This document shows, piece after piece, positions 7,542-38,235 of a stretch of DNA of 64,000 bases; position 1 is the first letter of the stretch, and each line of letters opens with the position of its first letter. The stretch lies in IMG/VR virus record IMGVR_UViG_3300045988_072631; one strand, 5' to 3'. A model generated the notes under the pieces. That model saw only the letters and a list, made by a program, of their open reading frames with translations, did no database searches and was not told the DNA's origin. Source of the stretch: a virus. A program made the translations under genes and the position numbers.

Positions 7542-7545
7542 CACG

Positions 7546-7575
7546 AAACCGCTGATTCTTATTGGCGGTTTTTTA
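7546..7575 (+). terminator. intrinsic terminator
   Basis: AAACCGC...GCGGTTT stem followed by a T run. A second GCCCC/GGGGC hairpin follows. Confidence 0.55.
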
Positions 7576-7655
7576 TATGCCCCAGAGAAGGGGCAGAAAA
7601 AATATCGCAAGAAGTTAGAGAAAACTTAAATCGCAGAAAGAAAGAGGTATGAATC

Positions 7656-8243: not shown

Positions 8244-8255
8244 GAGGAATATTAA

Positions 8256-14014: not shown

Positions 14015-14728
14015 ATGAGAATTAACGTACATGCCGGACATAACCCGGCAGGAAAAGTTGCGTGTGGCGCAGTAGGTCTTATTCAGGAGTCTGTAGAGGA
14101 CAGGAGAGTAAAGGATGAGGTTATCAATCAGCTCCGGCAGCTTGGACATACGGTCTATGACTGTACCGTGGATAATGGCACGGGACAGAAAGACGTATTA
14201 CGGAAAATTGTGCAGAAATGCAGACTGCATGAAGTTGATCTGGATGTATCCATCCACTTCAACTCCGGTGCGAATGATAAATCAGGTAACGCCAAGACAA
14301 CCGGAGTCGAGGTACTGGTTTACTCTGCGTCCAGCAAAGCAAAAGTCTATGCTGAAAAAGTCTGTGCTGCTATTGCAAGATTAGGTTTCCGGAATCGTGG
14401 TGTAAAGGTAAATTCCAGTCTGTATGTGCTGAAAAATACCAAGGCACCTGCAATGCTGGTTGAGTGCTGCTTCGTGGACGATAAGGACGATGTGAAACTC
14501 TATAATCACTATGAGATGGCATCAGCTATCGTTTACGGAATCACCGGCGAGAAGGTCTCTGCGACCTCTGAAACCGAAAAAGCAGATGCAGGTGAGGAAA
14601 CTACCACCGGCAATCCAAAAGCTCTTTATCGGGTGCAGGTGGGCGCATACGGTGTAAAGGGAAATGCGCAGACAATGGCAGATAAACTGAAAAAGGCCGG
14701 TTTTGATGCGGCAATCGTGCAGGCATAA
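14015..14728 (+). CDS. N-acetylmuramoyl-L-alanine amidase (Amidase_3) with C-terminal SPOR domain
   Basis: MRINVHAGHNPAG...SIHFN...ECCFVDDKDD. C-terminus YRVQVGAYGVKGNAQTMADKLKKAGFDAAIVQA. Confidence 0.8.
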   Translation: MRINVHAGHNPAGKVACGAVGLIQESVEDRRVKDEVINQLRQLGHTVYDCTVDNGTGQKDVLRKIVQKCRLHEVDLDVSIHFNSGANDKSGNAKTTGVEVLVYSASSKAKVYAEKVCAAIARLGFRNRGVKVNSSLYVLKNTKAPAMLVECCFVDDKDDVKLYNHYEMASAIVYGITGEKVSATSETEKADAGEETTTGNPKALYRVQVGAYGVKGNAQTMADKLKKAGFDAAIVQA

Positions 14729-14746
14729 TTTTAGTCTGATTTTATG

Positions 14747-14780
14747 GGGCAGTAGGTGTCAAAGCTTACTGCCCTTTTTT
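14747..14780 (+). terminator. intrinsic terminator
   Basis: 10-bp stem GGGCAGTAGG/CTTACTGCCC followed by T6. Confidence 0.7.
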
Positions 14781-14854: not shown

Positions 14855-17800
14855 ATGGCAGCAACCACGATTGATGATCTTCAGATCAAGATTGAAGCGG
14901 ATGCGAAAACTGCTTCTGATAAGCTGGATGCACTTGCTCAAAGCATGGTGAAACTGGCATCAAGCCTGAGCATCAACGTTGGCAAGATGTCTGGTGTTGC
15001 TATTGGACTTAATAGCATTACCAAGGCATCGCAGAATCTCAATTCCAGAAACATTACTACGATGTCAACGGCTCTTGGAAAGATAGCAGGTGTGGATTCT
15101 GCTCAGATTTCCAGAGTAGCTGGTTCTATGACGCAGCTCAAAAACAGCGTTTCTGGCGGTTTTAACACCGATATGAGCGGAATAGTGAATGTTGCTGATT
15201 CGTTGTCAAAACTGGGCGGTATAAAAGCTACACAGGGCGCGCAAAACCTTGTGCTCATAAAAGATCAGCTTGCTCAATTTGTGCAGGGAATGAACAGCGT
15301 AGGAACATTTACGTTTGACCCAACCGGTCTGACAAACACAATTAAAGCTATTGCGAAGCTGGGCGGAAAGACCGCAACGCAGGCAACGGCAAATCTTCCG
15401 AGCATTTCTGCTCAATTACAGAATTTTGTCCGGCAGATGAACCAGATCGGCTCTATGTCGTTTGACAACAAGAATCTGACCGACCTTGTAACGTCCATAG
15501 GCAGGCTAGGAAGCGTCGCAAGTGGGCGAGCGGTAAATAATATACCTTTGCTTGCAAACAACCTTAAATACCTGTTTGAGACGCTCTCAAAAGCACCATA
15601 CATCAGCCAGAACATTATCCAAATGACCACGGCACTGGCTAATCTGGCACGTACAGGAGCATCTAGTGGTACTGCGGCAAGATCACTGGGAACAAGTCTT
15701 TTCTCATTCTCAAAATCTGCCGGTAACGCAAGAAAGAGTGCATTTTCTTTGGCAGGTGCTATCGGCAAGTTTTACGCAACTTACTGGATGGTCATTAGAG
15801 GGATTGGACTTTTCCGGGATGCTATTGATATCTCATCCGATTTAACTGAGGTTGAGAACGTTGTCCGTACCACGTTCGGAAATATGGAGTACAAGGTTAA
15901 TGACTTTGTGCAAAACTCCATTCAGCAGTTCGGTATGTCCGAGCTTTCCGTTAAGCAGTATGCCAGTACATTCCAGGCAATGGGGACTGCTATGGATGTC
16001 GGTGGAAAACAGATCGAGAACGCAAACAGGTTCTTAAATGGTGCCACAGATGGATATATTGGATTGTCAGATTCTATGTCAGATGTGTCTTTGAATCTTA
16101 CTAAACTGACTGCGGATATGGCATCTTTCTACGACAAAGATCAGGCAGATGTAGCCAAAGACCTGCAATCTGTATTCACCGGAATGGTAGTTCCGCTACG
16201 TAAATATGGACTTGATCTGACGCAGGCTACTCTGAAAGAGTGGGCAATGAAGAACGGCATGGATGCTGATATTAAGTCCATGACGCAGGCAGAAAAGGCA
16301 ATGCTGCGGTATCAGTACGTCCTAGCAAATACCACGGCAGCACAGGGGGACTTCGCCAGAACAGCCGATACATGGCATAACACTGTTGTCAGGCTGAAGC
16401 AGTCCTTCCAGCAGTTGGGCGGCATTATTGGTGGTGCGCTGATTAACGCATTCAAACCGTTTTTACGGACTCTGAATTTTGTTATGCAAAAGGTAATCAG
16501 CTTTGCAACAACGGTAACAAATGCCCTTGGTGCAATCTTCGGCTGGAAATTTGAAGTGTCCGGCGGTGGTGTAGCTGACGAATGGTCAGATGCGGCAAGT
16601 TCGGCTGATGATCTGGCAGACAGTACCGGTAAAGCAGCTGACAATACAAAGAAGATGAAAACCAATCTTCTGGCTATTGACGAATTAAATGTACTTAACC
16701 CGGATGATTCAGATTCCGGTTCCGGCGGTTCTGGTTCCGGTGCAGGTGGCGCAGGTGGCGGTGCTGGCTCTGGTGGTCTGGTTAAGACAGACACTATCTT
16801 TAAGGATTTTCAGAGTAACATTAAAGATTTATACCAGCTTGGACGGTATATCAGCGAGGAATTGTCCCGTGCAATGGAAAGTATTGACTGGGATAGCATT
16901 TACGAAAAAGCTAGAAACTTCGGAAAAGATCTGGCGGATTTCCTTAATGGTCTTATCAATCCGAGATTATTTGGAAATATCGGAAAAACCATAGCCGGAG
17001 CGCTGAATACAGCTCTGGAATTTTTAAATTCCTTCGGAACAGAATTTGACTGGACAAACTTTGGGGAGTCTATTGCTGCTGGAATCAATAAGTTTCTCTC
17101 AAACTTTAATTTCAAACTTTTAGCAACTACATTGAATACGTGGGTAAAAGGATTTGAAAAAGCGTTCGTTGCAGCAATAAAGAAATTCAAATGGTCAAAT
17201 CTGGTAAATGCCTTTACTGACTTCTTCGGAAATTTAAGGCTTGATACTGCATTGCTTTTGTTAATTCCTGCTTCTGGTAAAGTTACAAAAGCTTTCAAAG
17301 ACCTCAACAATGCAGTAAAACTGGTATCTTCTGGAATTGGTGCTTTCACTGGTGATGCAGATAGTATTAGCTACCTAGCAACAAAATCCTCTTCCCTTGC
17401 ATCTGCTGTTAATGTGGCAGGAGATTCTTTCCAGAGATTGATGTTTGGCATTCATTACGGAGACTGGGCTGGTGGATTAAATTCAGCCATTACAAACATA
17501 AGAGATAATCTCACCGGATTGCAAAAGGGCATTATAGGTGTTACTTCCGTAGTCGCAGAATTTGCGCTCATCCGTACTGCTTTTTACGATCTTCAGTCTG
17601 GAAGTGAAAACTTAGTTTCTTCCATTTCTAAAATTGCAGTAGGAGCAGGTGCAGCGAGCGCTGCTTTGTATGTTGCATTCGGTCCCGCTGGATTGGCAGT
17701 AGCGGCATTTACAGCTTTAGCGGCAGCAATAAGCGGAACAAGTAGAGCTTTTTCCGAGCAGGAAGATATGACGCTTTACGGTGAAAAGCTGTCTGATATT

Positions 17801-19816
17801 ACAGAGCGGTTAAGAGGAACTGCACAGGCAACTGTAGAAAGAATGCAAGCTTCAAAAGAATATGTGGACGAAGTAGGAACAGCAGAAGCTACAATGGCGC
17901 AGGATTTGGCTAATCAATATTTTGATCTGGCTGAAAAAGAGAATCTGACAAACGCAGAAAAGGAAAAAATGAAATCCTTGGCAAGCAGTTTGGTAGATAC
18001 TCTTCCGGGACTTAGCCAATACTATAACGAGGAGACTGGTCTTCTCAATACCACGAGAGAAAGCGTTGAGAACTTAATTCAGTCAAAACTTGAAGATATA
18101 AGATTATCGGCAATTCAGGACGAACTTAAAAGTGCATATTCCGAGCAGATCACTGCCTACAAGACGATGAAAGAGGCTTTGGATGATGCAAATGCCAGCA
18201 AGGAAAAAATGAATGAGTTGCAGGAAAATTTCAATTTAATTCTCGAAAAGCAAGACCTTGTAGCTCAATACGACCAGCTTTCACAAAAAATTCTTACTTC
18301 CACGGATGATACCACTGCCCTTGTTGATGAACAGCAAAGATTGTGGGATGAAATCACAAATAATGGAGAAGAGACTAACTGGCTAAATTACGATTATCTT
18401 TCACAGAAACTTGGTGAAGCGTCAGAAGATCTGAACGGCTTTAAAGGCAAATATGAAGAAACTATGCAAACTCTGGCAGATGCTAAAGGGGCATATGATA
18501 TGGTTGGAAATACCATTTCAGAGCTTACCAGCATGATGACGGATGGCATGGTTGAGGCTGCTGGTAATTCTATTTCAGGTTATTCTAATACGCTTTCAAC
18601 CAGCACAGAAGCACAGGAAGCGGCAAGCCAGATGGCGCAAAACGTGTTAGATTCATTCGCAGCGGCACAGGATAGCCACAGTCCTTCCAAAAAATTTGCA
18701 GCATTAGCAGGTGATTCTGTAGACGGATATGTTGTAGGAACGCAGGAAAATGCAAGCAAAATGGAAGATGCCGGGCGCTCTCTTGCTGAAAGTGCCATTC
18801 AAAGCTTTAATGATGGAATCCGGAATAATTCTCAAAGTACCATTGATGCAATGAATGAATGGATTTACGGCATCACATCCGCTCTTTCACCGGAAGTTTG
18901 GACACCGGCATTTACCGGAATGCTTACCGGATTTCAGACGAAATGGAGTGAACTTACTACATGGTGGTCTGGAACGGCAATGCCATCCTTCTTCTCTGCG
19001 AATGTGGCTCCGTGGTTCACGGATGCATTCTGGAATGCCAAAACGAACGGCATGAAGCTTGGCTTGCAGCAGAAGTGGAATGAATTTGTTACATGGTGGA
19101 AATCCAGCATTAACCTTTGGTTTACTGTAAATGTAATGCCATGGTTTACCGTTGCAAGGTGGACAGAACAGGGCGAGCATTTCAGAAAAGCTCTGAAAGA
19201 TAAGTGGGATGAATTTTCCGATCAGTGGCATAAAGACCTTAAAACGTGGTGGAACACAGATGTCACAGTTTGGTTTACCGTTGCTAAATGGAATGCATTC
19301 GGAACAAACATGAAAAATGGACTGTACGAAGGATTTAAGGGAATTGTTCAGATGGTAGGAAATGTAATGAACGGTATGATCGACGTATTCAATGCCGGTC
19401 TTTCCAAAATCCAAAAGTCCATGAACAGCCTGATAAGTGACTTCAACAAGAATGCCGCTGTGATGGGTGTCTCCTCACTTCACAAAGTACATTTTGATAG
19501 CATTTCTCATGTTACCATTCCAGCTTATGAAGTCGGAGGTTTCCCGGAAGACGGCTTGTTCTTTGCTAATCACAATGAAATGGTTGGTCAGTTCTCGAAT
19601 GGTAGAACAGCTGTGGCGAACAACGAACAGATTGTTGCCGGAATCCGTGAGGGCGTTAAGGCTGCGGTTACAGAAGCACTGGCTCCGTATCTGTCAGACA
19701 TTGCAGATACAAACCGGGAGATTGCAGAAAAGGATGCATCCATAAATGTAGACGGACGGGAACTGGTTAATGCGATCAATAATCGTATCAGCCGGAATGG
19801 TTTCAGTTTCACGTAA
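14855..19816 (+). CDS. tape measure protein
   Basis: 1653 aa, helical and Gly-rich segments, W-rich repeats near the C-terminus. Position after the chaperones. Confidence 0.9.
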   Translation: MAATTIDDLQIKIEADAKTASDKLDALAQSMVKLASSLSINVGKMSGVAIGLNSITKASQNLNSRNITTMSTALGKIAGVDSAQISRVAGSMTQLKNSVSGGFNTDMSGIVNVADSLSKLGGIKATQGAQNLVLIKDQLAQFVQGMNSVGTFTFDPTGLTNTIKAIAKLGGKTATQATANLPSISAQLQNFVRQMNQIGSMSFDNKNLTDLVTSIGRLGSVASGRAVNNIPLLANNLKYLFETLSKAPYISQNIIQMTTALANLARTGASSGTAARSLGTSLFSFSKSAGNARKSAFSLAGAIGKFYATYWMVIRGIGLFRDAIDISSDLTEVENVVRTTFGNMEYKVNDFVQNSIQQFGMSELSVKQYASTFQAMGTAMDVGGKQIENANRFLNGATDGYIGLSDSMSDVSLNLTKLTADMASFYDKDQADVAKDLQSVFTGMVVPLRKYGLDLTQATLKEWAMKNGMDADIKSMTQAEKAMLRYQYVLANTTAAQGDFARTADTWHNTVVRLKQSFQQLGGIIGGALINAFKPFLRTLNFVMQKVISFATTVTNALGAIFGWKFEVSGGGVADEWSDAASSADDLADSTGKAADNTKKMKTNLLAIDELNVLNPDDSDSGSGGSGSGAGGAGGGAGSGGLVKTDTIFKDFQSNIKDLYQLGRYISEELSRAMESIDWDSIYEKARNFGKDLADFLNGLINPRLFGNIGKTIAGALNTALEFLNSFGTEFDWTNFGESIAAGINKFLSNFNFKLLATTLNTWVKGFEKAFVAAIKKFKWSNLVNAFTDFFGNLRLDTALLLLIPASGKVTKAFKDLNNAVKLVSSGIGAFTGDADSISYLATKSSSLASAVNVAGDSFQRLMFGIHYGDWAGGLNSAITNIRDNLTGLQKGIIGVTSVVAEFALIRTAFYDLQSGSENLVSSISKIAVGAGAASAALYVAFGPAGLAVAAFTALAAAISGTSRAFSEQEDMTLYGEKLSDITERLRGTAQATVERMQASKEYVDEVGTAEATMAQDLANQYFDLAEKENLTNAEKEKMKSLASSLVDTLPGLSQYYNEETGLLNTTRESVENLIQSKLEDIRLSAIQDELKSAYSEQITAYKTMKEALDDANASKEKMNELQENFNLILEKQDLVAQYDQLSQKILTSTDDTTALVDEQQRLWDEITNNGEETNWLNYDYLSQKLGEASEDLNGFKGKYEETMQTLADAKGAYDMVGNTISELTSMMTDGMVEAAGNSISGYSNTLSTSTEAQEAASQMAQNVLDSFAAAQDSHSPSKKFAALAGDSVDGYVVGTQENASKMEDAGRSLAESAIQSFNDGIRNNSQSTIDAMNEWIYGITSALSPEVWTPAFTGMLTGFQTKWSELTTWWSGTAMPSFFSANVAPWFTDAFWNAKTNGMKLGLQQKWNEFVTWWKSSINLWFTVNVMPWFTVARWTEQGEHFRKALKDKWDEFSDQWHKDLKTWWNTDVTVWFTVAKWNAFGTNMKNGLYEGFKGIVQMVGNVMNGMIDVFNAGLSKIQKSMNSLISDFNKNAAVMGVSSLHKVHFDSISHVTIPAYEVGGFPEDGLFFANHNEMVGQFSNGRTAVANNEQIVAGIREGVKAAVTEALAPYLSDIADTNREIAEKDASINVDGRELVNAINNRISRNGFSFT

Positions 19817-19822
19817 AATTAA

Positions 19823-19857
19823 GGCGGTAGGGTAAAACCTGCCGCCTCTTTTCTTTT
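19823..19857 (+). terminator. intrinsic terminator after the tape measure gene
   Basis: 9-bp stem GGCGGTAGG/CCTGCCGCC followed by TCTTTTCTTTT. Confidence 0.7.
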
Positions 19858-19868
19858 GTCTTTTTCCG

Positions 19869-19877
19869 TGGTATAAT
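19869..19877 (+). promoter_or_regulatory. extended -10 promoter element (TGGTATAAT)
   Basis: TGnTATAAT lies 31 nt upstream of the lipoprotein start. Confidence 0.5.
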
Positions 19878-19907
19878 CTGGGTATATTTTCATGGGAGGA
19901 AAGTTAT

Positions 19908-20540
19908 ATGAAAAGGATAGTTTGCATTGCTTTAGCAGCGGTTATGCTTACCGGATGCGGAGGTCAGGAAATGAATTTAGAAAGCGCAAAAGCCGATCTT
20001 TCTAAGTTTGAACACCAAAAATCTGATGATAGCATGATTTTAAAAAGCTATGATGGTAAATCAAAGGTTTTGTATATTCAGCCAGAATATGAGGTGAATG
20101 AGAAAAATTACACCACTGATTTATCAGAATTTGTTCTTGATACAAATAAGGTAAAATTTTTGATATTGGGTGATGGGATTAAAACCATCAATAATGCTGT
20201 ATTTAATTTTTCCGATGTTGAAAGCGTATATTTTCCGGAATCAATGGAAGTAGTGTATGATGCAACACTTAATTATTTACACCCTGATGAAGATGAAAAA
20301 ATTCAAATATACTATGGTGGAACAGAAGAAGAATGGAATTCAATTTTTACAAAATATCAGCGTCAGACAGCAAAAGAAGCACTGGACTCTTCCGATGACC
20401 CATATGAACAGGGAGCAGCTCTAGGAGCGTCTATTGCTGATAAATTAAATTCTATGATGGGTTCATATAGTGCATCTGACTTTGAATATCACTATTCTGT
20501 ATCGGAAAGTGACCTAGAAGATATAATAAAAAATTATTAA
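19908..20540 (+). CDS. lipoprotein with LRR_5/BspA-like repeats
   Basis: Signal peptide with lipobox LTGCGG. INNAVFNFSDVESVYFPESMEVV-type repeats. Confidence 0.65.
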   Translation: MKRIVCIALAAVMLTGCGGQEMNLESAKADLSKFEHQKSDDSMILKSYDGKSKVLYIQPEYEVNEKNYTTDLSEFVLDTNKVKFLILGDGIKTINNAVFNFSDVESVYFPESMEVVYDATLNYLHPDEDEKIQIYYGGTEEEWNSIFTKYQRQTAKEALDSSDDPYEQGAALGASIADKLNSMMGSYSASDFEYHYSVSESDLEDIIKNY

Positions 20541-20554
20541 ACGGAGGAGAAAAG

Positions 20555-20785
20555 ATGGCAAAAACAATCAAATGTCCTAGCTGGGGATGTGATGGAATTG
20601 GAATCCCTGCGGACACAAAGAAAAAATTTTCGTTCGGTAAGGCAATTGTAGGAAACACAGTTGGATTTGCTTTGGGAGGCCCGGTTGGTGGAATCGTAGG
20701 AGCCGCAACAGGAATCGGTGGTAAACGCGGAAAGACCACGTTTGTGTGCTCAAAGTGCGGTAGAGTTTTTGAAGCAAAGCTGTAA
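20555..20785 (+). CDS. zinc-ribbon protein with a glycine-zipper segment
   Basis: CPSWGC...CSKCG flank GFALGGPVGGIVGAATGIGG. Confidence 0.5.
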   Translation: MAKTIKCPSWGCDGIGIPADTKKKFSFGKAIVGNTVGFALGGPVGGIVGAATGIGGKRGKTTFVCSKCGRVFEAKL

Positions 20786-20797
20786 GGATGGAATGAT

Positions 20798-21052
20798 ATG
20801 TACGACAAAGAAAAAGGAATTTATCCGTCTGGAAGCTATTTGGTAGGAAGAGATTTGCCTCTTGGTCGATATATTTTTAAAGCAAAGAAAGGCGAAACCG
20901 GTATGGTAAGTCTTTTTAAAGATTACGAAGATTTTAAAAATAAGAAAAATGCAATTGTAGACCAATGGTTTGAAGACGATATACATTTGTCATTGATGGA
21001 AGAGAACAACTATCTATTTGTGGAAGAAGCAACAATCAAAAGAAATGCCTAA
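20798..21052 (+). CDS. hypothetical protein (84 aa)
   Basis: ORF track; coupled to the previous gene. Confidence 0.45.
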   Translation: MYDKEKGIYPSGSYLVGRDLPLGRYIFKAKKGETGMVSLFKDYEDFKNKKNAIVDQWFEDDIHLSLMEENNYLFVEEATIKRNA

Positions 21053-21054
21053 AA

Positions 21055-21086
21055 GTGGTGCCCTGTTATGGGGCATCATTTTTTTT
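21055..21086 (+). terminator. intrinsic terminator
   Basis: Stem 21055-21063/21071-21079 followed by T8. Confidence 0.6.
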
Positions 21087-21097
21087 GCAAAAAGGTA

Positions 21098-21144
21098 TTG
21101 ACTTTTGCCGGACAAAATATATAATAGAATTATGCCAGACAAAA
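21098..21144 (+). promoter_or_regulatory. promoter (TTGACT-16-TATAAT) with direct TGCCrGACAAAA repeats
   Basis: -35 at 21098-21103, -10 at 21120-21125. Repeats at 21106-21117 and 21133-21144. Confidence 0.55.
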
Positions 21145-21157
21145 GTGAGGTGAGAAT

Positions 21158-21322
21158 ATGAGTCCAAGGACGGGCAGACCAACAGATAACCCAAGACCAA
21201 ATAAGATTAGTATCCGCATAAGTGATTCCGATAAGCGCATTTTGGAAAATTACTGTGAACGTGAAAACGTAAATAAGACAGAAGCAATTAGTCGCGGGAT
21301 AAAGAAGTTGGAAGAAAAATAA
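21158..21322 (+). CDS. ribbon-helix-helix (CopG-like) DNA-binding protein (54 aa)
   Basis: MSPRTGRPTDNPRPNKISIRISDSDKRILENYCERENVNKTEAISRGI. Below the ORF-track cutoff. GAGGTGAG RBS. Confidence 0.65.
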   Translation: MSPRTGRPTDNPRPNKISIRISDSDKRILENYCERENVNKTEAISRGIKKLEEK

Positions 21323-21441
21323 AACAGCCGTAGCACCGACCAAAGCGTAACGACTGTTTTCACCATTCCCGAAAGACTGGTAAATTTATTATATCAGTTC
21401 CTTTCGGGAAAATCAAATAATTTTGAAAGGAACGAAAAAAA

Positions 21442-21687
21442 ATGGACAAATTTTTAGAGGTAGTATATTCCAGTCAGATAGCAGAAAGCGCAGAAAAGGG
21501 CGATAAGTGTATAGAATTCTTTCAGCCGCTGATGGACGAGATCAAAGAAATCGTAAACGAAAAGGTTTATGAGAAGTTGAGCGAAATTTTCATGGCGTGT
21601 GCTTCCAAAAATGACAGCTATTACGCCGTGGAAGGAATGAAACTGGCAATCAGTATCATGGACGGAAGCTATATTCCGCAGGTGTAA
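21442..21687 (+). CDS. hypothetical protein (81 aa)
   Basis: ORF track. Confidence 0.45.
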   Translation: MDKFLEVVYSSQIAESAEKGDKCIEFFQPLMDEIKEIVNEKVYEKLSEIFMACASKNDSYYAVEGMKLAISIMDGSYIPQV

Positions 21688-21701
21688 GGGAGGAAAGGTT
21701 G

Positions 21702-21854
21702 ATGGAAGAGAACAGAAAGAAAATTCACGAGATGGTTGACTGCATGGACACTGACGGGATGTTAGCCTACTGGGAGACATTCATGAGACGCTGGTTAGAA
21801 TACTGGGGACATGGATGCTTGGACAATATGGGAAAGAAAGGCGGTGTGCAGTAA
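21702..21854 (+). CDS. hypothetical protein (50 aa)
   Basis: ATG after GGGAGGAAAGG. The stop overlaps the next ATG. Confidence 0.35.
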   Translation: MEENRKKIHEMVDCMDTDGMLAYWETFMRRWLEYWGHGCLDNMGKKGGVQ

Positions 21855-21970
21855 TGGACTATAAAAAAGCGTTGATTTCTATGATCGAGGAAATGGAGAA
21901 CTGTGATTTTTTGTTTAAGATTTACCATTATGCCATCGTAAAATATCGCAAGGAAAGAGGTGCCAGATAA
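21854..21970 (+). CDS. hypothetical protein (38 aa)
   Basis: taATG coupling at both ends. Confidence 0.3.
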   Translation: MDYKKALISMIEEMENCDFLFKIYHYAIVKYRKERGAR

Positions 21971-22695
21971 TGACTGATATTCAGATTTTCAATAACCCAG
22001 ATTTTGGGGACATTAGAACCGTTGAGATCGACGGAAATGTTTGGTTTGTAGGAATAGATATTGCTTCAGCTCTTGGGTATTCCAATGTCAAAAACGCTGT
22101 TCCTACGCATGTAGACGAAGATGATAAGCTGAGTACTCAAATCGAGTACGCAGGTCAGAAAAGAACAGTTACAGTTATCAATGAATCCGGTCTCTATGCG
22201 CTTGTTTTCGGCAGTAAACTTGACTCTGCAAAGAAGTTCAAGAAGTGGGTGACATCAGAAGTCCTCCCGGCAATTCGTAAGAATGGCTCTTACACCATGC
22301 CGATCAGCACCAACGACAAAATCATGATTCTGGCGCAGGGGCATATGGAGTTGCAACAGGAGGTTGACAGCATCAAGAAGGACATGGAAAGTCTGAAAAT
22401 GGATTTACCGATTCTCCCGGTAGAGGAAGACCGGATAACGTCTGCTGTGAAGCGCAAGGGACTGGCTGTAATGGGAGGTAAGACCTCTAATGTGTATCGG
22501 GATAAATCCATTCGCCGCAAGGTGTATCAGGGCATCTATGCGAATTTGAAGTACAACTTTCAGATCAAGACGTACCGGGCATTGAAACGGAGTCAGGTGG
22601 ACAAGGCTATTGATATCATCAATAACTATCAGCCGCCGTATGTTCTGGCAGAACAAATCGACTCTGCAAATGCACAGCAGACCTTGATATTCTAG
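21970..22695 (+). CDS. Bro-N domain antirepressor-like protein
   Basis: IQIFNNPDFGDIRTVEIDGNVWFVGIDIASALGY ... [17 protein letters not shown]. Confidence 0.75.
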   Translation: MTDIQIFNNPDFGDIRTVEIDGNVWFVGIDIASALGYSNVKNAVPTHVDEDDKLSTQIEYAGQKRTVTVINESGLYALVFGSKLDSAKKFKKWVTSEVLPAIRKNGSYTMPISTNDKIMILAQGHMELQQEVDSIKKDMESLKMDLPILPVEEDRITSAVKRKGLAVMGGKTSNVYRDKSIRRKVYQGIYANLKYNFQIKTYRALKRSQVDKAIDIINNYQPPYVLAEQIDSANAQQTLIF

Positions 22696-22718
22696 GGGAA
22701 AACTGCTATAATAAAATC

Positions 22719-22869
22719 AAATTCAGCCGAATCCATCAGCTCCGCCCGGCTTGTCGTTGAGGGGAGAACGGGGCGAAAAGGATAGGACGAACCGAGCAAG
22801 GACGGCAAACATTTTGAGAATCACGCTCACTGGACATGGTAGAGATACTGTGTCTGGTGGGCGTTTTTT
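22719..22869 (+). ncRNA. structured leader / short terminated RNA (copy A), upstream of rha
   Basis: Promoter TTGATA-17-TATAAT (22684-22712); about 150 nt GC-rich; terminator 22824-22869. Homologous to 62732-62886. Confidence 0.55.
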
Positions 22870-22911
22870 GTTTGTCTGAAACGAACAATAAATATCACAG
22901 GAGGATGGTAT

Positions 22912-23559
22912 ATGTTAGTTGAGATCACAAAAATCCAGAAAGAAGAAGTTGCGACCGTAACTAGCCTTGATGTAGCGGAAACGTTCGGAAAGGAACACCG
23001 TAGGGTTTTACAGGATATACGTGAGCTGAAATGCAGTGAAGATTTTCGATTGCACAATTTCGTGCAGTCGAAATATGTGAATGAACAGGGTCATAATCAA
23101 TCAATGTTTATTATGACCAGAGACGGCTTTACGTTATTGGCAATGGGGTATACCGGTGAAAAGGCTATGCAGTTCAAAGAAGCATATATTCGCCAGTTTA
23201 ACGCAATGGAAAAAGCTCTTATCGGAAAAATCAGAGAAAGAGAAAAAGGCATTGCAGTCCGGCAGGCTCTTACCAATACTTTGAAACAATCAGAAGAAAA
23301 TGATCGGATGCATGGTCATGCCTACTCCACATATACAAATGTAATTTACAAAGCTGTATTTGGTAAAAATGCAAAACAGCTCCGGGAAGAGTATGGAGTA
23401 GACGATAAAGCAAATTTGAGAGACTTTTTTAGCGAAGAGGATTTAAGAATAGTCCAGTCAAAAGAAATGCTTGTCAGCGGACTCATCGGGTGTGGTTGGG
23501 GATATGACCAAATTAAGAAATTCTTAAATGAAAACAATGCCTTGTTACAGGCCGTATAA
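22912..23559 (+). CDS. Rha-family phage regulatory protein
   Basis: VATVTSLDVAETFGKEHRRVLQDIREL N-terminus. Confidence 0.7.
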   Translation: MLVEITKIQKEEVATVTSLDVAETFGKEHRRVLQDIRELKCSEDFRLHNFVQSKYVNEQGHNQSMFIMTRDGFTLLAMGYTGEKAMQFKEAYIRQFNAMEKALIGKIREREKGIAVRQALTNTLKQSEENDRMHGHAYSTYTNVIYKAVFGKNAKQLREEYGVDDKANLRDFFSEEDLRIVQSKEMLVSGLIGCGWGYDQIKKFLNENNALLQAV

Positions 23560-23570
23560 AACACATGCAA

Positions 23571-23614
23571 GCAGTCAGTGGTTTATGGAGGTTCGATTCC
23601 TCCGGCTGCTTTTT
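23571..23614 (+). terminator. tRNA-like minihelix (acceptor stem + T-arm) acting as an intrinsic terminator
   Basis: GCAGTC...GGAGG-TTCGATT-CCTCC-GGCTGC followed by T5. No D or anticodon arms. Confidence 0.5.
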
Positions 23615-23666
23615 CAGTGGGATAGGGTAGCTACCGAAAGGCGAGACGACAGTCGCTTTCCCACTG
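23615..23666 (+). ncRNA. conserved three-way-junction RNA motif (copy X) in a 5' UTR
   Basis: P1 CAGTGGGA/TCCCACTG encloses TAGGGTAGCTACCGAAAG plus the hairpin GCGA..TCGC. Same architecture as 55917-55966 (-). Confidence 0.45.
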
Positions 23667-23729
23667 ATTCAACTATTATTGTCGCAAGTGCATGCAGGAG
23701 CACACATATCTGATGTCGGAGGTATAAGA

Positions 23730-24734
23730 ATGAATGAACAGCAGAAAAAATTAACTGAAGATGAAATAAATACACAGATTGAATTTTTGTCAAGCGCAAA
23801 GTGCAATCATACATATCACAAATACATTGATATTACAGGGGATTTGATAGAGGGAACACTTCTTTCCAGAATCCTTTACTGGTTCACACCAGACAAAAAG
23901 AATAATACAAAAGTTCGCATATTTAAAGATGGGGAATATTGGATTGCAAAGCAGAGAAAAGACTGGTGGGAAGAAATCAGAATCAGTGAGAGACAGTATG
24001 ATAAAGCAATTAAAAGACTCGCTGAAAAAGGATTTATTACTTTGGCGAAGTATAAATTTAATTCTATGCCTACTGTCCATATTAGACCTGAATGGAAAAA
24101 AATCAATGAAGCAGTTGCGATCTGGAAAGAGAATTTAAGAAAAGAAATTACCGGAGAAAACAATCAGGAATTGCCAAAACAGGAAAACGGGAATGACACA
24201 AAATGTAATTCCCAAGGGAATAACACAAAGTGTAATTCGGGAGTTGCACAAACAGGCATTCCTATAACATGTATTACTAACAATGATTACAATAACAATG
24301 ATTACGATAGTATGAGAGTATGCTCTTTTTCTGCGGAAAAAGAGGTCTCTCCCACATCTGAAGGTGGTACGTTATCTCCTACGGTCACAAAGGCCATTGA
24401 CGAGGCAATGACGGAAGAAGGAGAATCACCTGCTAGCGGCTATAGAGCCGAGTTGAAGGACATAGCTGAATACTTTGTAAGCGAATATGCCAGAACGCAA
24501 GGAAAGCCGCATAAGCCACTCACAAGACCGGCTATTAGCAATATCGTATACAATTACTTGCATCAAGACGAGGACGAATACGGAATCATGGATGATGTGT
24601 GGACGCTAGACCAGTATATTCCGTTAATTGATATGTATATGCAGACGAACTACCGGGAGGGCATAGAAAAGAGCCTGTCCCACTTTATGTCCGGTTCTAT
24701 CCGCCGGAATTTAAAAGCAAAATTGATAGAGTAA
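23730..24734 (+). CDS. winged-helix DNA-binding protein, possible replication initiator-like
   Basis: ATG after GGAGG. TLLSRILYWF...RISERQYDKAIKRLAEKGFI pattern. The function is a guess. Confidence 0.4.
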   Translation: MNEQQKKLTEDEINTQIEFLSSAKCNHTYHKYIDITGDLIEGTLLSRILYWFTPDKKNNTKVRIFKDGEYWIAKQRKDWWEEIRISERQYDKAIKRLAEKGFITLAKYKFNSMPTVHIRPEWKKINEAVAIWKENLRKEITGENNQELPKQENGNDTKCNSQGNNTKCNSGVAQTGIPITCITNNDYNNNDYDSMRVCSFSAEKEVSPTSEGGTLSPTVTKAIDEAMTEEGESPASGYRAELKDIAEYFVSEYARTQGKPHKPLTRPAISNIVYNYLHQDEDEYGIMDDVWTLDQYIPLIDMYMQTNYREGIEKSLSHFMSGSIRRNLKAKLIE

Positions 24735-24832
24735 GAATCATACCGGGTGCCGACGACGTAGGCATCCGCTAACCAGAAAAAGATACTGGCAGACTGCCGG
24801 AGGGTACTTCTGCCGAGAACGGAGGTGCCTGA

Positions 24833-25246
24833 ATGGCAGAAAAAAAAATAAAAATTGGTTCTGGCATGTCCTCTTTCCTAAACGTGAACGGGGTAGACTT
24901 CCCGTGCCCTAGGGTGGGATTTTCGTATATTATCAGCACAACGGTAAATGCCGGGCGAAATGCGAACAATGCAGTCATTGGCCAGAGAGTAGGAAGAGAC
25001 ATTTTTAAGCTGAACAATATGGAATGGGCAATGCTGGATGCAGCTAAGTGGCAGAGCATGTTGGATGCAATTAAACCATATTTTGTACCTGTAACATTTG
25101 AGGACTACAGAACAGGGAGACCAATCACCATTACAATGTACCCGGGGGACAGAACGGGGGTTCCACTCTATTCAGACCCGGATTCTCATATTGTTACAAA
25201 GTATGAAAACTGCAAATTCAATCTGATTGATGCCGGTTGGGAGTGA
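24833..25246 (+). CDS. distal tail protein (Dit)-like
   Basis: 137 aa, directly upstream of the large tail tip protein. Confidence 0.5.
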   Translation: MAEKKIKIGSGMSSFLNVNGVDFPCPRVGFSYIISTTVNAGRNANNAVIGQRVGRDIFKLNNMEWAMLDAAKWQSMLDAIKPYFVPVTFEDYRTGRPITITMYPGDRTGVPLYSDPDSHIVTKYENCKFNLIDAGWE

Positions 25247-25252
25247 TAGATC

Positions 25253-27556
25253 ATGCAAAATGTAAGTGCAGCATATAAAAAGGCCATGAGGCAGCCGATG
25301 CGGAACCGTGGCTACATAACTGCCAGAATCGGAATTATCAGTTCAACGGCACAGGATAACGTAGTTGCAAAAGAATCTGATAATGATTTTGCGTACTTCG
25401 TAAACAACACAGAGGTATTCAAGGATAACACAGTAAGCCGGGTGTACGCCACCATGGAGCAGAATTTCGCAAAGGTTGACGGAACCATGTACTTTCTGCC
25501 GGAGGAATATGAAGGGTACGACTATTACAACAATGGTTTGGTGACGAGTGAGTTGCTAAGTCCCATGTACATTTCCTTTGACGGAAACATTGCGGATATC
25601 AAGGGACTTACAATTGATTTTGGGGAATGCTACCCTACTTCATTTACGGTTCAGTCTGATAATGGTACGAAAACCTATGAAAATGCCGGGAAAATATTTG
25701 TTACTGAGGATACATTTGATGCGGTAACATTCCTGCGGATAACACCGGTAACCATGGTTAATGGACAGGGAAGGATGCGAATTTTTCAATTTACCTGCGG
25801 AATTTCCAACACTTTTTCAAATAAGCAGGTGAAATCATTCACCTATAAAGACTATGTATCGTCCGTATGTGAATCTCTTCCGAGTCAGGATATGACCCTG
25901 ACAGTGGACAATCAGGATTTGTATTACAACCCGGATAACCCGGAATCAGCCGTTGCCTACATGGAGCAGGGGCAGGAGATGAAGGTGTCATTCGGATATG
26001 ATCTGGATGGTGAAGGAACAATTGAATGGGTGCCGGAAATCACCACATTCCTTAAATCGTGGTCAGCGACCGATACAGAAGCCAAATTTACCATGGTTGA
26101 TGTATTTGACTGGAAACTGAATGGAACGTATTACAAGGGTCTGTACCGCACGGAGGGCATATCTTTGTATGATCTGGCACTGGATGTTTTGACAGATGCC
26201 GGCATGAAGCCAGAAGAATATGTGATCGACCCGTATTTGCATGATGTCAAGGTATGCAATCCTATGCCTGCGGTAAAACATTCGGAAGCCCTGCAGATCA
26301 TATCGAATGCCGGACGCTGTGTTTTAAGCGTCGATAGAAAAGGAAGGGTACTAATCAGATCATCTTTTATCCCGGATATGACTTCCAGTGCCGGAATAGA
26401 TTTGCTGTATCCAAGTAATTTCCTGTATCCGGGAGAAGATGTACTACCGATAGGGGACAACGGAACGGCAGCGCAAACAGGATTCAGCCATGCAGAAAAT
26501 GTTCTGAAATCCGGAGAGCGGACAGCATATGCAATGTTCAGTAACGATTTTTCCGTGGTAGATGGAACGGTGATGTTTCTTCCGGAGTCAGAAGCGGATT
26601 ATGTTGATACGACTGGATATGTCAGTGACAGCATAGCAGATGAAAACGGGGAGTTTGAGGACATACCAAAAATTATCATCGAATTGGAGTCTGGATATAT
26701 TTGTTACGGTTTTGCTATTCAATTCCGGAATGTGGCACCTAAAGAATACCACGTAGTAACCTACTATCAGAAAGAACAGGTGCAGGATGTAACGGTCGAA
26801 AATCCTGGATTATACAGCCAGTACACAGAACAGCTTGACCGGTTCGACGTCATGGAGATTGTGTTCAAGAAAGGTTACCCAAATGCCAGAGTGGCGGTTG
26901 ACTCGGTATTGTTCGGAAATGCAACAGATTACACGCTGTCAAGAGATTACAATTTGAAGGGTTCACCGACTGCAACAAGACAAGAAAGAGTCAAAACGAT
27001 TGCAGTTAAGCGAAGCCTTTACAGAAATTCTACATTGGCAATTAAAGAATTATCGTCAGAAGAACTCACACTGGCCGGAACAGAGATCACGAAAACGATT
27101 CATTTTAGCAAAGCGTCATACGGTCTTACAGTGTCAGTAGAAGAAGGGAACGCAACGGCAGCGATTACTGTCAGCAGCAACTACTTTGCAGATATTAAGA
27201 TCACAGGAACAGCCGGTGAAAAAATCAGATATTCTGTCAAGGGATATGAATATGTTGTGGATGAACTGTATTACAGAATCAACCACAATGACACGGGTAT
27301 TGAAAAAGCATGGAGCAATCCACTTATCAGCACAGAAGAGTTGGCAAAAGATCAGGAGGAATGGCTTGCATCCTACTATCTGGGTGATGTAGATTATCAA
27401 ATTTCGTGGAACGGAGATCCGAGAACAGATGCGAATGATCTTTTCTATCTGGAATTAAAAGAAAGAGACAACACGATGATACGAGCCTACCAGAATGAGC
27501 TGAAATATAGCTCCGGATGGTCAGGCACTTTAAAAGCAAGAAAGGTGGTGCTGTAA
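25253..27556 (+). CDS. tail tip / Tal-like protein
   Basis: 767 aa; position after the Dit-like gene. Confidence 0.6.
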   Translation: MQNVSAAYKKAMRQPMRNRGYITARIGIISSTAQDNVVAKESDNDFAYFVNNTEVFKDNTVSRVYATMEQNFAKVDGTMYFLPEEYEGYDYYNNGLVTSELLSPMYISFDGNIADIKGLTIDFGECYPTSFTVQSDNGTKTYENAGKIFVTEDTFDAVTFLRITPVTMVNGQGRMRIFQFTCGISNTFSNKQVKSFTYKDYVSSVCESLPSQDMTLTVDNQDLYYNPDNPESAVAYMEQGQEMKVSFGYDLDGEGTIEWVPEITTFLKSWSATDTEAKFTMVDVFDWKLNGTYYKGLYRTEGISLYDLALDVLTDAGMKPEEYVIDPYLHDVKVCNPMPAVKHSEALQIISNAGRCVLSVDRKGRVLIRSSFIPDMTSSAGIDLLYPSNFLYPGEDVLPIGDNGTAAQTGFSHAENVLKSGERTAYAMFSNDFSVVDGTVMFLPESEADYVDTTGYVSDSIADENGEFEDIPKIIIELESGYICYGFAIQFRNVAPKEYHVVTYYQKEQVQDVTVENPGLYSQYTEQLDRFDVMEIVFKKGYPNARVAVDSVLFGNATDYTLSRDYNLKGSPTATRQERVKTIAVKRSLYRNSTLAIKELSSEELTLAGTEITKTIHFSKASYGLTVSVEEGNATAAITVSSNYFADIKITGTAGEKIRYSVKGYEYVVDELYYRINHNDTGIEKAWSNPLISTEELAKDQEEWLASYYLGDVDYQISWNGDPRTDANDLFYLELKERDNTMIRAYQNELKYSSGWSGTLKARKVVL

Positions 27557-27557
27557 T

Positions 27558-27965
27558 ATGGCGTGGATTCAGCCTAAAACAAACTGGGCGGTTGGAGACC
27601 GGTTTAATATATCGGATTACAACAGGATTAAAGGAAATCTTAATTTTTTACACGAACGAGCGGAAGAGCTTTACCCGGATTTCAATATTATCAATATGGG
27701 AGCGGATAAAGTGTATGCCGACTATCCATATGCCCGTGAAATCAATAATTTTGAGAAGAACCTGGAAACAATCAACGATAATGTTTATACGCAAGACCTG
27801 GGCGTTACAGCAACTTTCTACAGCAATGGAGCTTTTATCCAGTGGGACGAACTGAACCGGATAGAATCAGCTATGCTGAGCATCTATGAAATGTTGAACA
27901 GGCAAGAAGCAGGATTGCCAGTGCTATCGTTCAGGCTGGGTGGAATGAAAGGAGTGAGAGTATAA
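27558..27965 (+). CDS. tail-associated hypothetical protein
   Basis: ORF track; coupled (taATATG). Confidence 0.5.
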   Translation: MAWIQPKTNWAVGDRFNISDYNRIKGNLNFLHERAEELYPDFNIINMGADKVYADYPYAREINNFEKNLETINDNVYTQDLGVTATFYSNGAFIQWDELNRIESAMLSIYEMLNRQEAGLPVLSFRLGGMKGVRV

Positions 27966-28421
27966 ATGGCATTAAAGACGGATTACAAAGATGATATCAT
28001 TGCAACGGGTACGCAGAGAAAGTATACACAGACAACTAATTCTGATGGTACAGTGTCGTTCACAGATTCTACAGAGTATCAGCAGACCGGTGACACCTTT
28101 GGAGCAAAGGATATTAACGCAACCAACGTTGAAGTGAATAAACTGGAAGGAGTTAAGTCGGTGACTCTGAAAGCAAACGAATGGACAGGCTCGGCAGCTC
28201 CATATCAGCAGATTGTGACGGTTGATGGAATTAGATCGACGGATTCTCCGGTGCTTGTCAGCTTGCTGGCAGACGGGGCATCTGAGGCAACACAGAAAGC
28301 ATACAGTAAGGCATTCGGAATTGTATCTTCTGGAACTGGTTCAACTTCTGATGGCAGTGTTACATTCAAAGTATACAAAAAGCCAGCCACAGACATTACG
28401 GTTGGTTTGAAAGGAGTCTAG
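27966..28421 (+). CDS. tail-associated hypothetical protein
   Basis: ORF track. Confidence 0.5.
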   Translation: MALKTDYKDDIIATGTQRKYTQTTNSDGTVSFTDSTEYQQTGDTFGAKDINATNVEVNKLEGVKSVTLKANEWTGSAAPYQQIVTVDGIRSTDSPVLVSLLADGASEATQKAYSKAFGIVSSGTGSTSDGSVTFKVYKKPATDITVGLKGV

Positions 28422-28424
28422 GTT

Positions 28425-29276
28425 ATGGGAACTATTTTAATGCCGGGCGGCGGTGGCGGAATTGATCTGGATGTTGTTACTGCTGCGGCTGGAGATGTTT
28501 TAAATGGAAAAGTAATTGTTGGTGCAGATGGAGAGCCATTGACAGGAACGCTTGCTTTAACAGGAAATGCAGGTACGGGAGATGTACTGTCCGGGAAGAC
28601 GTTCTACAATGCCGATGCAAAAACAAAGCGCACCGGAACAATGACAAATCAGGGTGCAAAAACAGCGTCTCTTAACTGCGGGGGAAGTTATACGATTCCT
28701 GCTGGTTATCACAATGGATCTGGAAAAGTATCAGCAAAAAGTTTGTCTTCTCAGACCAGAGGAACTGCGTCTGCCGGAAATATTTTAACAGGTAAGACCG
28801 CTTGGGTTAATGGAAACATGATAACTGGCGCAATGAGGGATTATTCAAATGTTGAGCAAACAGCCACTATAGAAACGTCAGATCAAACAAAATCATGCTA
28901 CGGAAATGATGGAACTAATATAAAAGTTGTTCCTGCAATTGGTTATTGGGGTTCATGGACATTCAATAAGTGCATAAGTATTCCATTAAACAGCATTATA
29001 AAAATTGCTAGCGGTGATTGGACTGCTGGAACAGCAGGTTGGTGCGGATTCAAACCAGATATTGTATTTTTCCGAGGAAATGTGTCCGGTTCACAATTTC
29101 CAATAGGAATATATTGTAACGTAAATGGAATGTATATTAATGTGGTAGAAGGACAGTCGCAATCACACTATGGAGACAATATTTATGTAACTGATACTGG
29201 ATGGGCATATCATAACAGCATGGCATATATTGATGGAAAAGCTATTAAGTATGTTTGCTTAAAAATTACACCATAA
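28425..29276 (+). CDS. tail fibre / receptor-binding protein
   Basis: Gly-rich N-terminus and three GDVLxGKxF...TGTM repeats. Last gene of the structural block. Confidence 0.6.
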   Translation: MGTILMPGGGGGIDLDVVTAAAGDVLNGKVIVGADGEPLTGTLALTGNAGTGDVLSGKTFYNADAKTKRTGTMTNQGAKTASLNCGGSYTIPAGYHNGSGKVSAKSLSSQTRGTASAGNILTGKTAWVNGNMITGAMRDYSNVEQTATIETSDQTKSCYGNDGTNIKVVPAIGYWGSWTFNKCISIPLNSIIKIASGDWTAGTAGWCGFKPDIVFFRGNVSGSQFPIGIYCNVNGMYINVVEGQSQSHYGDNIYVTDTGWAYHNSMAYIDGKAIKYVCLKITP

Positions 29277-29283: not shown

Positions 29284-30042
29284 TTACAACACATACGCCA
29301 CATAACCAATAACATCATCAACATCACCTTCTGAGCATCGGGATCTGTTATCTCTGATGCTCACATATTCAAATTTTCCATTTCCGCAAGGATTTCTGCG
29401 GGCAATGAACACATTGTCCCCGTAAATGATGATGATATCCTCGGTAGGACGTGGATTGCGGTCATTGGCAATCAGGAGAATATCATATGGAGAATAGTGC
29501 GGCATATAGTTGTCAACCGATGTTTTTATACCCATAAAAATTTGCGGCTTGATATTTTGCGGAATATCAGTGATATCAAGGAATTCAAACTCGCCGGAAA
29601 TATGTAACGTGCCGTCTGGATGTTCCTCCAGATTCATCACAGGGACAGTTTTTCTCCCTTGCCGGAAACCGCCCAAAGAAAGATCATATTGCCTGCGGAC
29701 GAACCAGCGCACAAAATACTGATAGTGTTCAGGCATTTCACGGAACATAGAAATGCAGTCCATGTCCTCTTCGGAAATAGTGTCAAGTCCGATTAGCTCA
29801 TCCACTGTAACACCTATAGCCTTAGCTAAGAGGGCGGCAGTGGACAGCTTGCAATCTTTGGAGTTCTGGTACAACAGATTTTTAAGCGTGTCAAATGAAA
29901 TACCGGCTGATTCAGCAAGTTCATGAATGGTAATATCTGAATACTTTAAGCAAATATCCAAATTGTGACGCAAATTATCTGTAAAGACAGTGTTTTCTCT
30001 GGTAAAATGTCCAGATAATTTATACAAATTTTCTTTTTTCAT
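29284..30042 (-). CDS. XRE-HTH regulator with a degenerate S24 (LexA/CI-like) C-terminal domain
   Basis: N-terminal HTH ITIHELAESAGISFDTLKNLL. The C-terminus aligns to the S24 fold, but VDNYMP replaces GDSMxP and IARR replaces the K-containing motif. Confidence 0.6.
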   Translation of the reverse strand: MKKENLYKLSGHFTRENTVFTDNLRHNLDICLKYSDITIHELAESAGISFDTLKNLLYQNSKDCKLSTAALLAKAIGVTVDELIGLDTISEEDMDCISMFREMPEHYQYFVRWFVRRQYDLSLGGFRQGRKTVPVMNLEEHPDGTLHISGEFEFLDITDIPQNIKPQIFMGIKTSVDNYMPHYSPYDILLIANDRNPRPTEDIIIIYGDNVFIARRNPCGNGKFEYVSIRDNRSRCSEGDVDDVIGYVAYVL

Positions 30043-38210: not shown

Positions 38211-38235
38211 AATTATAGGTTATGCGCTGTTTAAA

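Follow-up and report, generated by a model that had tools for sequence, protein, structure and literature searches.

A paralogous pair of structured leader RNAs and a mosaic cargo interval between the tape-measure and tail-tip genes of an uncultured temperate phage

The DNA analysed here (64,000 nucleotides; IMG/VR record IMGVR_UViG_3300045988_072631), called the window in the following, is the genome of a temperate tailed phage. Between the gene for its tape-measure protein (TMP) and the next tail gene lies an interval of about 5 kb (19817-24832), whose cargo genes are all on one strand. TMP (14855-19816, +; 1653 amino acids (aa); phrog_1535, 2.7e-55) is the upstream boundary, and its central and C-terminal parts are mosaic among related phages. 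The downstream boundary is formed by the first tail-tip genes, at 24833-27556 (+), whose products have 137 aa (phrog_1194) and 767 aa (phrog_13879). The elements listed for this interval in an initial annotation, made from the letters alone, were all found to be present at the places given for them. The most interesting of them is leader A, an undescribed structured RNA with a second copy, leader B, elsewhere in the window. Relatives were collected by a search with the 767-aa protein, which yielded 16 viral contigs, and more were added by pattern and exact-protein look-ups; where single contigs have to be told apart, their L numbers are given.

Leader A (22684-22873, +) consists of a promoter, a structured RNA of about 150 nt and an intrinsic terminator. 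The RNA covers 22707-22873 and scores 152.8 bits with a covariance model. The promoter is of the sigma-70 type (TTGATA-17-TATAAT, +), with TG ahead of the -10 hexamer, and the terminator (22823-22864 plus T6, +) has 19 pairs. The paralog, leader B (62697-62890, +), has its own promoter and terminator, and its RNA (62718-62890) was recovered by nhmmer at 1.1e-18 and scores 128.6 bits with the covariance model. Run with filters off, the model found exactly two leader copies in the window. Leader B lies 29 nt upstream of a TerS-like gene (62920-63588), the product of which gives a sub-threshold match to P22 gp3, a TerS (GP3_package, E=1.8e-5). In the synteny comparison, TerL and portal genes come within a few kb downstream of leader B, and it is for this reason that leader B is placed at the start of the late operon. 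The loci that were fetched contain 45 distinct leader sequences, so that at least 45 exist in public viral contigs; 31 of them (30 of the B type and the intermediate L033) are followed, 0-34 nt past the end of the match, by a gene of the TerS-like family. The promoter is at a fixed distance in all versions of the leader. A gap without a promoter separates each leader's terminator from the start codon that follows, 38 nt in the case of leader A (Rha gene) and, as given above, 29 nt in that of leader B (TerS-like gene). Both leaders have the layout of an attenuator, namely a promoter, a conserved structured RNA, an intrinsic terminator and then a gene without a promoter of its own.

The structure of the leader is conserved and covaries. 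Helix P1 (CCGAAUCC/GGAUAGG) is 100% paired, with compensatory changes in four of its six pairs, and P2 and the upper stem of the terminator also covary. The covariation score of 0.178, compared with 0.092 in shuffles, was reached in none of 500 shuffles, and 89% of the cells are paired, against about 40% when the partners are slid. Blocks that are invariant and common to both leaders are CCGAAUC, GCCGU, GAUAGG, GAGCAAGGACGGC, and CACGCUCAC...GUGGGCGUUUUU. A small hairpin drawn by RNAalifold around GAGCAAGGACGG was rejected, as its 5' side is not conserved, and a proposed long-range GCCG:CGGC pairing (around 22761 and 22802 in leader A) is kept in all 20 sequences; the base of the terminator is likewise invariant. 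A search by eye for a conserved antiterminator alternative to the leader terminator found none. With Rfam 15 at the gathering threshold, neither leader was matched, and the sole hit in the window was Hammerhead_II. At E<=5 over the interval, Rfam gave no family for the leader, for the tRNA-like minihelix or for motif X (both described below), and returned a chance hairpin match only. A scan of genome contigs with the loose pattern AAGGACGGC-N12-30-CACGCTCAC gave no true leader by nhmmer among the 120 matches listed. The only DNA of the interval that is shared with distant relatives, at about 78% identity, is 22668-22877, which is leader A.

The region upstream of leader B (61040-62475) holds two to three small genes, at least one of which is RHH-like by eye (PKGTKERI motif), and their promoters bear repeated TAACGCACATATA/TTGACAATATAACGCAC motifs. 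One of them (61954-62475), which encodes 173 aa, is kept at this place, ahead of leader B, in relatives.

The zone upstream of leader A begins with an intrinsic terminator behind TMP (19822-19857, +), made up of a hairpin at 19822-19847 with a 10-bp stem (7 GC pairs) and a T-run. Among the terminator-like sites of the scan it ranks second, which agrees with the strong terminator that had been predicted at the end of TMP. The terminator is kept in L192, and a comparable hairpin lies behind TMP in L016. Next, reading of the sequence gives an extended -10 element (TGgTATAAT) at 19869-19877 (+) that belongs to the first cargo slot. The terminator, the extended -10 and the ribosome-binding site form a conserved linker; DNA homology to L002, L004 and L005 spans 19526-19910/19914 and stops at the start codon at 19908, after which a different gene follows.

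In the window, the first slot is filled by a lipoprotein of 210 aa (19908-20540, +; phrog_9700), which had been proposed as a leucine-rich-repeat lipoprotein. A lipobox (LTGC) and a match to LPAM_1 (E=0.009) bear out the lipoprotein, and the leucine-rich character remains a weak hint, the best PDB sequence match being a 'leucine rich hypothetical protein' at E=0.096. The gene is replaced by unrelated genes in L004/L005, L006 and L192, and is absent in L002. It is followed by a 76-aa Zn-ribbon protein with a Gly-zipper segment (20555-20785, +; phrog_3845, 4.7e-13; phrog_24502, 4.1e-11), by an 84-aa open reading frame (ORF; 20798-21052, +) conserved in L001-L003 and L013, and by a terminator-like hairpin with T8 (21056-21087, +), again read in the sequence. 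This lipoprotein unit is flanked by signals of its own, with the TMP terminator and the extended -10 on one side and the hairpin with T8 on the other. The lipoprotein and the small membrane and Zn proteins, with a promoter of their own, are probably expressed from the prophage; the lipoprotein is a candidate surface or exclusion protein, and an exclusion role for it and its neighbours is a guess.

The next gene encodes a 54-aa ribbon-helix-helix (RHH) DNA-binding protein of the CopG/Arc-like type (21158-21322, +; phrog_876, 1.5e-13). Its sigma-70-type promoter (TTGACT-16-TATAAT; 21098-21125, +) is accompanied by operator-like repeats in the region to 21144, that is, two exact 12-nt direct repeats of TGCCRGACAAAA at 21106 and 21133, within and after the promoter. 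With one mismatch allowed, this motif has 5 matches in the window, where 1.0 is expected. Three small ORFs of 81, 50 and 38 aa (21442-21970, +) are variable cargo; they have no Pfam or PHROG family matches and their presence varies among relatives. The last gene before leader A encodes an antirepressor-family protein of 241 aa with Bro-N and ORF6C domains (21970-22695, +; Pfam 5.1e-26 and 8.1e-31; phrog_463, 1.1e-75). An antirepressor-family gene is thus found among late genes and outside the primary immunity region, where the CI-like repressor gene is located (29284-30042, -); in relatives of the L006 type, this slot is also occupied by an antirepressor-family gene. Within 21325-21416, the minus strand has a promoter-like site (TTGATT-17-TATAAT with TG), which is 72% complementary to the promoter region of leader A and is paired with a terminator-like hairpin at 21342-21325. 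Read as consensus matches only, the two could give an RNA of about 65 nt antisense to the end of the RHH gene, recalling sar of P22.

The slot behind leader A holds a Rha-family regulator of 215 aa (22912-23559, +; Phage_pRha, 1.6e-32). In relatives, it is occupied by Rha, Ant/Bro, ORF6N or a collagen-like tail-fibre gene, or is empty. In L002, the tail-fibre gene that takes the place of Rha encodes 456 aa (6920-8290 of that contig). The slot is closed by a tRNA-like minihelix (23570-23614, +), with a hairpin at 23570-23609 composed of an acceptor-like stem and a T-arm GGAGGTTCGATTCCTCC, followed by a T-run, which serves as terminator and linker. ARAGORN found no tRNA in it, and in L008 it comes directly behind the leader. 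A second minihelix of the same design, with acceptor-like stem, T-arm CCCGGTTCGATTCCGGG and T-run, lies at about 60140-60190 (-). An attP function for the minihelix was considered and rejected, in view of its distance of about 29 kb from the integrase gene, its recurrence in relatives as a linker and this second copy in the window. Together with leader B (62718-62890) and a Bro-N paralog at 32083-32880, the second minihelix also confirms the earlier observation that elements of the interval have paralogs elsewhere in the window. Behind the minihelix, the 5' untranslated region of the last gene of the interval contains motif X (23614-23667, +), a long hairpin with the inverted repeat I15; two sequence variants occur among the phages, the hairpin is kept in both, and the match to Rfam int-alpA is sub-threshold (22.7 bits against a cutoff of 35.8). 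The last gene encodes a 334-aa winged-helix protein (23730-24734, +; phrog_6493, 1.2e-13).

The 137-aa gene that follows does start at 24833, where a Dit-like gene had been expected, and its identity as Dit is weakly supported. Its AlphaFold2 model has low confidence (predicted local distance difference test, pLDDT, 61), and the best Foldseek matches of the model, to proteins from the tube and the baseplate of contractile injection systems, have weak scores (E ~0.1; TM 0.26-0.39). With Pfam no match was obtained, to Sipho_tail or to any other family. On the strength of the model, the protein is weakly suggested to be Dit- or tube-like.

The relatives show that the interval keeps its position and changes its content. 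In 14 relatives, with 55-99% identity in the 767-aa protein, the distance from TMP to the 137-aa gene is 1.8-5.3 kb, and it is about 1.7 kb in L255, L257 and L260, which were found in ENA via an exact homolog of the 137-aa protein and judged by their neighbouring genes. The interval is therefore present in every relative checked with at least 55% identity (n=14) and in the three judged by neighbours. L016, at 44% identity the most distant relative, has 60 nt with one hairpin between TMP and the 137-aa gene, so that the two genes are direct neighbours, as they are in the window only if the interval is set aside. The comparison of synteny suggested at the outset thus revealed presence/absence polymorphism of the cargo, and the interval itself is missing from L016. 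The layout is constant: TMP terminator, first cargo, small genes, RHH gene (12 of 15 mapped loci have a homolog in the interval), small ORFs, antirepressor-family gene, leader and second cargo. The minihelix and the winged-helix gene, where present, follow the second cargo slot, and then comes the 137-aa gene. The first slot encodes a lipoprotein in some phages and, in others, an unrelated protein of 207 or 213 aa or a Rha-like one. Most cargo of the relatives belongs to the Rha, Bro, Ant and ORF6N families, with one slot holding the collagen-like tail-fibre gene and one a nuclease-like gene. Whatever the cargo, leader A is upstream of the 137-aa gene in every relative that has the interval, including L008, which has no cargo gene after the leader. 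The homology breaks at linkers and gene starts (about 19910, 21102-21132, 21957, 22869-22881, 23579-23616 and 24306).

In four relatives (L192, L206, L217 and L025), the block of leader A, (Rha), winged-helix gene, 137-aa gene, 767-aa gene and two further genes (d135 and d151) is inverted with respect to TMP and lies immediately downstream of the gene for the CI-like repressor. L028 is listed alongside L025 among the contigs with an inverted tail-tip module. In the inverted relatives, TMP is still followed by the linker of terminator and extended -10, with a different first cargo gene. Since the block is on the opposite strand, the tail-tip genes of these four phages cannot be read from the TMP operon, and as the inverted block keeps leader A in front, it was concluded that leader A probably heads a separate, autonomous tail-tip operon. 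TMP and the putative Dit gene are indeed separated, as had been noted, and what was seen as the splitting of one operon is better described as two units, the tail-tip genes forming a leader-headed one that occurs in either orientation. This arrangement is the strongest argument for the mechanism proposed below. The inversion may be either a fixed rearrangement or a programmed one.

On balance, the interval is probably a lineage-wide, slot-structured accessory and regulatory locus, a swap zone in uncultured temperate gut phages, in which the duplicated leader heads the tail-tip unit. The late genes would be organized in two transcription units, each under a sigma-70-type promoter, a structured leader RNA of about 150 nt and a strong intrinsic terminator, with leader B ahead of the TerS-like gene and leader A ahead of the tail-tip genes. 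Both leaders would answer one late signal that permits read-through, which may be a phage antiterminator or a ligand. Termination would be the default state and read-through would occur late in infection; the default is deduced from the near-consensus promoters, the strong terminators and the lack of a promoter before the next gene. Further plus-strand terminators are located inside the units (14746, 19822, 21056 and 23586), and because more terminators have to be passed downstream, a processive, factor-dependent mechanism is favoured, a riboswitch being the alternative. With a leader of its own, the tail-tip unit would allow genes to be taken up and exchanged, without harm to tail synthesis, in the DNA from the TMP terminator to leader A and in the slot behind leader A. 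The sites of exchange would be the conserved linkers: behind TMP, the terminator with the extended -10 and the ribosome-binding site; then the terminator of the leader; and last the tRNA-like minihelix. The RHH repressor with its operator-like repeats and the Bro/ORF6C antirepressor would form a second immunity module similar to immI of P22, and behind leader A would come a Rha-family regulator and a modular winged-helix protein. Anatomy, paralogy, covariation, mosaicism and the inverted arrangement are observed here; that read-through is conditional, when each unit is expressed and what the cargo does, we infer from sequence.

The interval had also been described as a large moron cluster, whose genes have promoters and terminators of their own, and this description holds, as seen from the flanking signals and from the presence or absence of single genes among relatives. 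Of the features of morons, own signals and replacement among relatives are observed, and atypical composition is not. A plain moron cluster would go further, in that the genes would have been acquired independently, leader A would serve its neighbour (Rha or other cargo) or be a small RNA gene, and the tail-tip genes would be expressed by read-through from the TMP operon. The cargo genes with their own promoters and terminators, the observed polymorphism and the strength of the leader terminator (19 pairs plus T6) are in line with this. It is nevertheless unlikely, given that in four relatives the tail-tip genes are inverted with respect to TMP and leader A is still in front of them, and that leader A precedes the 137-aa gene in all relatives with the interval, even in L008, where no cargo follows. 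Moreover, the strong terminators at 19822 and 22823 would have to be passed in any case.

The winged-helix protein could give the interval another meaning, that of an accessory replication module, in which the protein would be an initiator of the lambda O type with an origin (iterons) within its own gene, serving as a second, late-expressed origin. The initial annotation had called the protein Rep-like; the winged helix is confirmed, and the hints of an initiator are weak and the assignment generic. In the AlphaFold2 model (pLDDT 70.8), a winged-helix N-domain is joined through a disordered linker to a helical C-domain. Relatives keep the C-domain (88-97% identity) and swap the N-domain, which is of the HTH_36 type in some. 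This two-domain build, the HTH_36 domain in the swapped variants and the matches to DnaD-like and replication-initiator PHROGs (1.2e-13 for the protein of the window and 4e-20 for the N-domain variant of L003) would fit an initiator. So would the iteron-like look of the tandem direct repeats in the linker-coding DNA of two alleles, which are 2x23-27 nt and 2x15 nt in the window (24189-24238 and 24278-24307) and 4x22 nt in L005 (8922-9008). The other three of the five alleles compared, those of L008, L206 and L192, have no tandem repeats. With Foldseek, the model retrieves only generic winged-helix folds of the MarR/Lrs14/TFE type (E ~0.008), and the family profile gave nothing meaningful against PDB sequences. 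The C-domain has no Pfam match, and by BLASTP the 334-aa protein shows no similarity to the phage's own Phg_2220_C protein. The gene is missing in relatives of the L006, L010 and L255 types, and the phage already has a replication module among its early genes (50507-51540). A replication module is thus quite improbable, and a transcription factor is at least as likely a role for the protein as an O-like initiator.

The idea of a satellite-like or parasitic cassette integrated in the tail operon of a helper, to which the content of the interval (antirepressor, Rha, RHH, Rep-like protein and tRNA-like fragment) had given rise by its resemblance to satellite regulatory modules, can be regarded as very improbable, as the interval occupies the same site in all relatives checked, with a conserved layout and parts exchanged piecemeal and not all-or-none, has neither a recombinase ORF nor flanking direct repeats, has an ordinary tetranucleotide composition, is built around a paralog of the phage's own late leader, and ends its cargo slot with a minihelix that recurs as a linker in relatives and has a second copy in the window. 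The profiling of composition that had been proposed as a check gave tetranucleotide distance z values of -0.4 to -1.4, and a lower GC content (0.36) is confined to 20-21 kb. The absence of an integrase is true of the interval; elsewhere (52225-53838), the phage encodes an excisionase and a tyrosine integrase. Conserved position, piecemeal swapping, the lack of a recombinase and of flanking repeats, and ordinary composition hence point to the exchange of cassettes at a fixed locus.

Several points weigh against the reading of a swap zone with a leader-headed tail-tip unit. Read-through of leader A and use of its predicted promoter are deduced from sequence features, and neither a Q-, N- or NusG-like antitermination factor nor a ligand was identified for the leader. 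The leader could act on the adjacent cargo gene alone, or as a stand-alone small RNA. The GCCG:CGGC pairing is a proposed one, as it joins invariant blocks without covariation. The match of the RHH protein to Pfam RHH_1 (17.8 bits) is under the cutoff of 20.5, and an antirepressor role of the Bro and Rha proteins is suggested by their family names only. Most relatives come from a single metagenome (3300045988), which makes the sampling narrow. The inversion could be an assembly artefact, which is countered by four contigs with consistent junctions.

The genes of the window run in this order, starting with TerL with an intein-like insert, portal and capsid genes (1754-9356), followed by tail genes, an endolysin gene (14015-14728) and TMP, the tail-tip genes as a whole (24833-29276) and, on the minus strand, the CI-like helix-turn-helix repressor; the replication module and the excisionase and integrase genes are among the early genes. 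Searches of GenBank phages gave no match by megablast with 13-29.5 kb, and by tblastn with the 767-aa protein two unannotated faecal contigs only, at 23% identity; these searches thus yielded neither a cultured relative nor an annotation that could be transferred. The literature searched contained no account of such an arrangement. The tail operon is also broken just before TMP, by the endolysin gene and a terminator (14015-14775). This endolysin (Amidase_3 and SPOR) lies between the tail-chaperone genes and TMP, with the strong terminator at 14746-14775 behind it, and relatives have a CHAP and choline-binding lysin in its position. The insert in TerL (938 aa, 1754-4570) is a LAGLIDADG/Hom_end homing endonuclease. 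A type II hammerhead ribozyme (Hammerhead_II, RF02276; 60547-60615, -) was found among small minus-strand ORFs, with 54.7 bits against a gathering threshold of 37 and E=1.6e-8. A diversity-generating retroelement is present at 36617-39430, with a reverse transcriptase at 38408-39430 (phrog_1423, 8.7e-104) and an A-rich template repeat at 38236-38346. Two paralogous target genes each have a variable repeat at the 3' end (37107-37217 and 37753-37839), and these repeats deviate from the template mainly at A positions.

The proposed swap zone would explain how a large and fast-changing accessory and antirepressor locus can persist amid tail genes, in that the genes downstream own a copy of the late-operon switch. 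It would also provide a late-gene switch, defined by sequence and present in two copies per genome, for gut phages without a cultured member. More speculatively, and with rather less than even confidence, the leader is proposed to be a new class of phage cis-regulatory RNA, with a pseudoknotted aptamer-like domain and a terminator, that gates late genes in widespread uncultured gut phages; its duplication would have made a tail-tip module that works in either orientation, and the slot behind it would co-express changing antirepressor-type or origin-binding proteins.

Among known systems, lambda has a promoter, a short RNA and a strong terminator directly upstream of its packaging and late genes (PR'-qut-6S RNA-tR', acted on by Q). 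Other leaders of processive antitermination are put of HK022, N/nut, EAR and LoaP, and nutL/nutR as well as putL/putR are used twice per genome. The leaders described here resemble these in their constitutive-looking promoter, the terminated short RNA, the further terminators downstream and the use of the device at two places in the genome. They differ in having a conserved, covarying structure, in matching no Rfam family and in that no Q-, N- or NusG-like factor was identified for them. From this comparison, a ligand-sensing riboswitch and an antitermination leader are equally possible. The morons of temperate phages (of the lambda/HK97 type, and the remote antirepressor genes of the Gifsy type) likewise have their own promoter and terminator between essential late genes, come and go from one relative to the next and count lipoproteins and antirepressors among them; unlike usual morons, the cargo here is not atypical in composition, sits in fixed slots with conserved linkers and is coupled to a regulatory leader that has been duplicated.

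Of the known systems, the sieA-mnt-arc-sar-ant region of P22, between the injection-protein gene 16 and the tailspike gene 9, comes closest. In P22, late transcription must pass the ant terminator to reach gene 9. As in the phage described here, an interval (about 3 kb) within the late structural genes parts DNA-delivery proteins from a tail-tip protein; the order in the P22 record (BK000583) is 7, 20, 16, sieA, mnt, arc, sar, ant, terminator, 9. The region holds a superinfection-exclusion membrane protein, RHH repressors with operators at their promoters, an antirepressor and a small regulatory RNA, with promoters and terminators of its own. Unlike in P22, the genes here are all on one strand, several belong to antirepressor families (Bro-N/ORF6C and Rha), the RNA is no antisense RNA but a structured leader with a paralog at the head of the late operon, and a winged-helix gene follows. 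The likeness is one of layout, which is known here from the sequence, and not of demonstrated protein homology to P22. With this comparison, the layout of immI is extended to a lineage that is unrelated and has a long tape-measure gene, which suggests that immunity and exclusion genes have repeatedly found a safe site at the junction of DNA-delivery and tail-tip genes.

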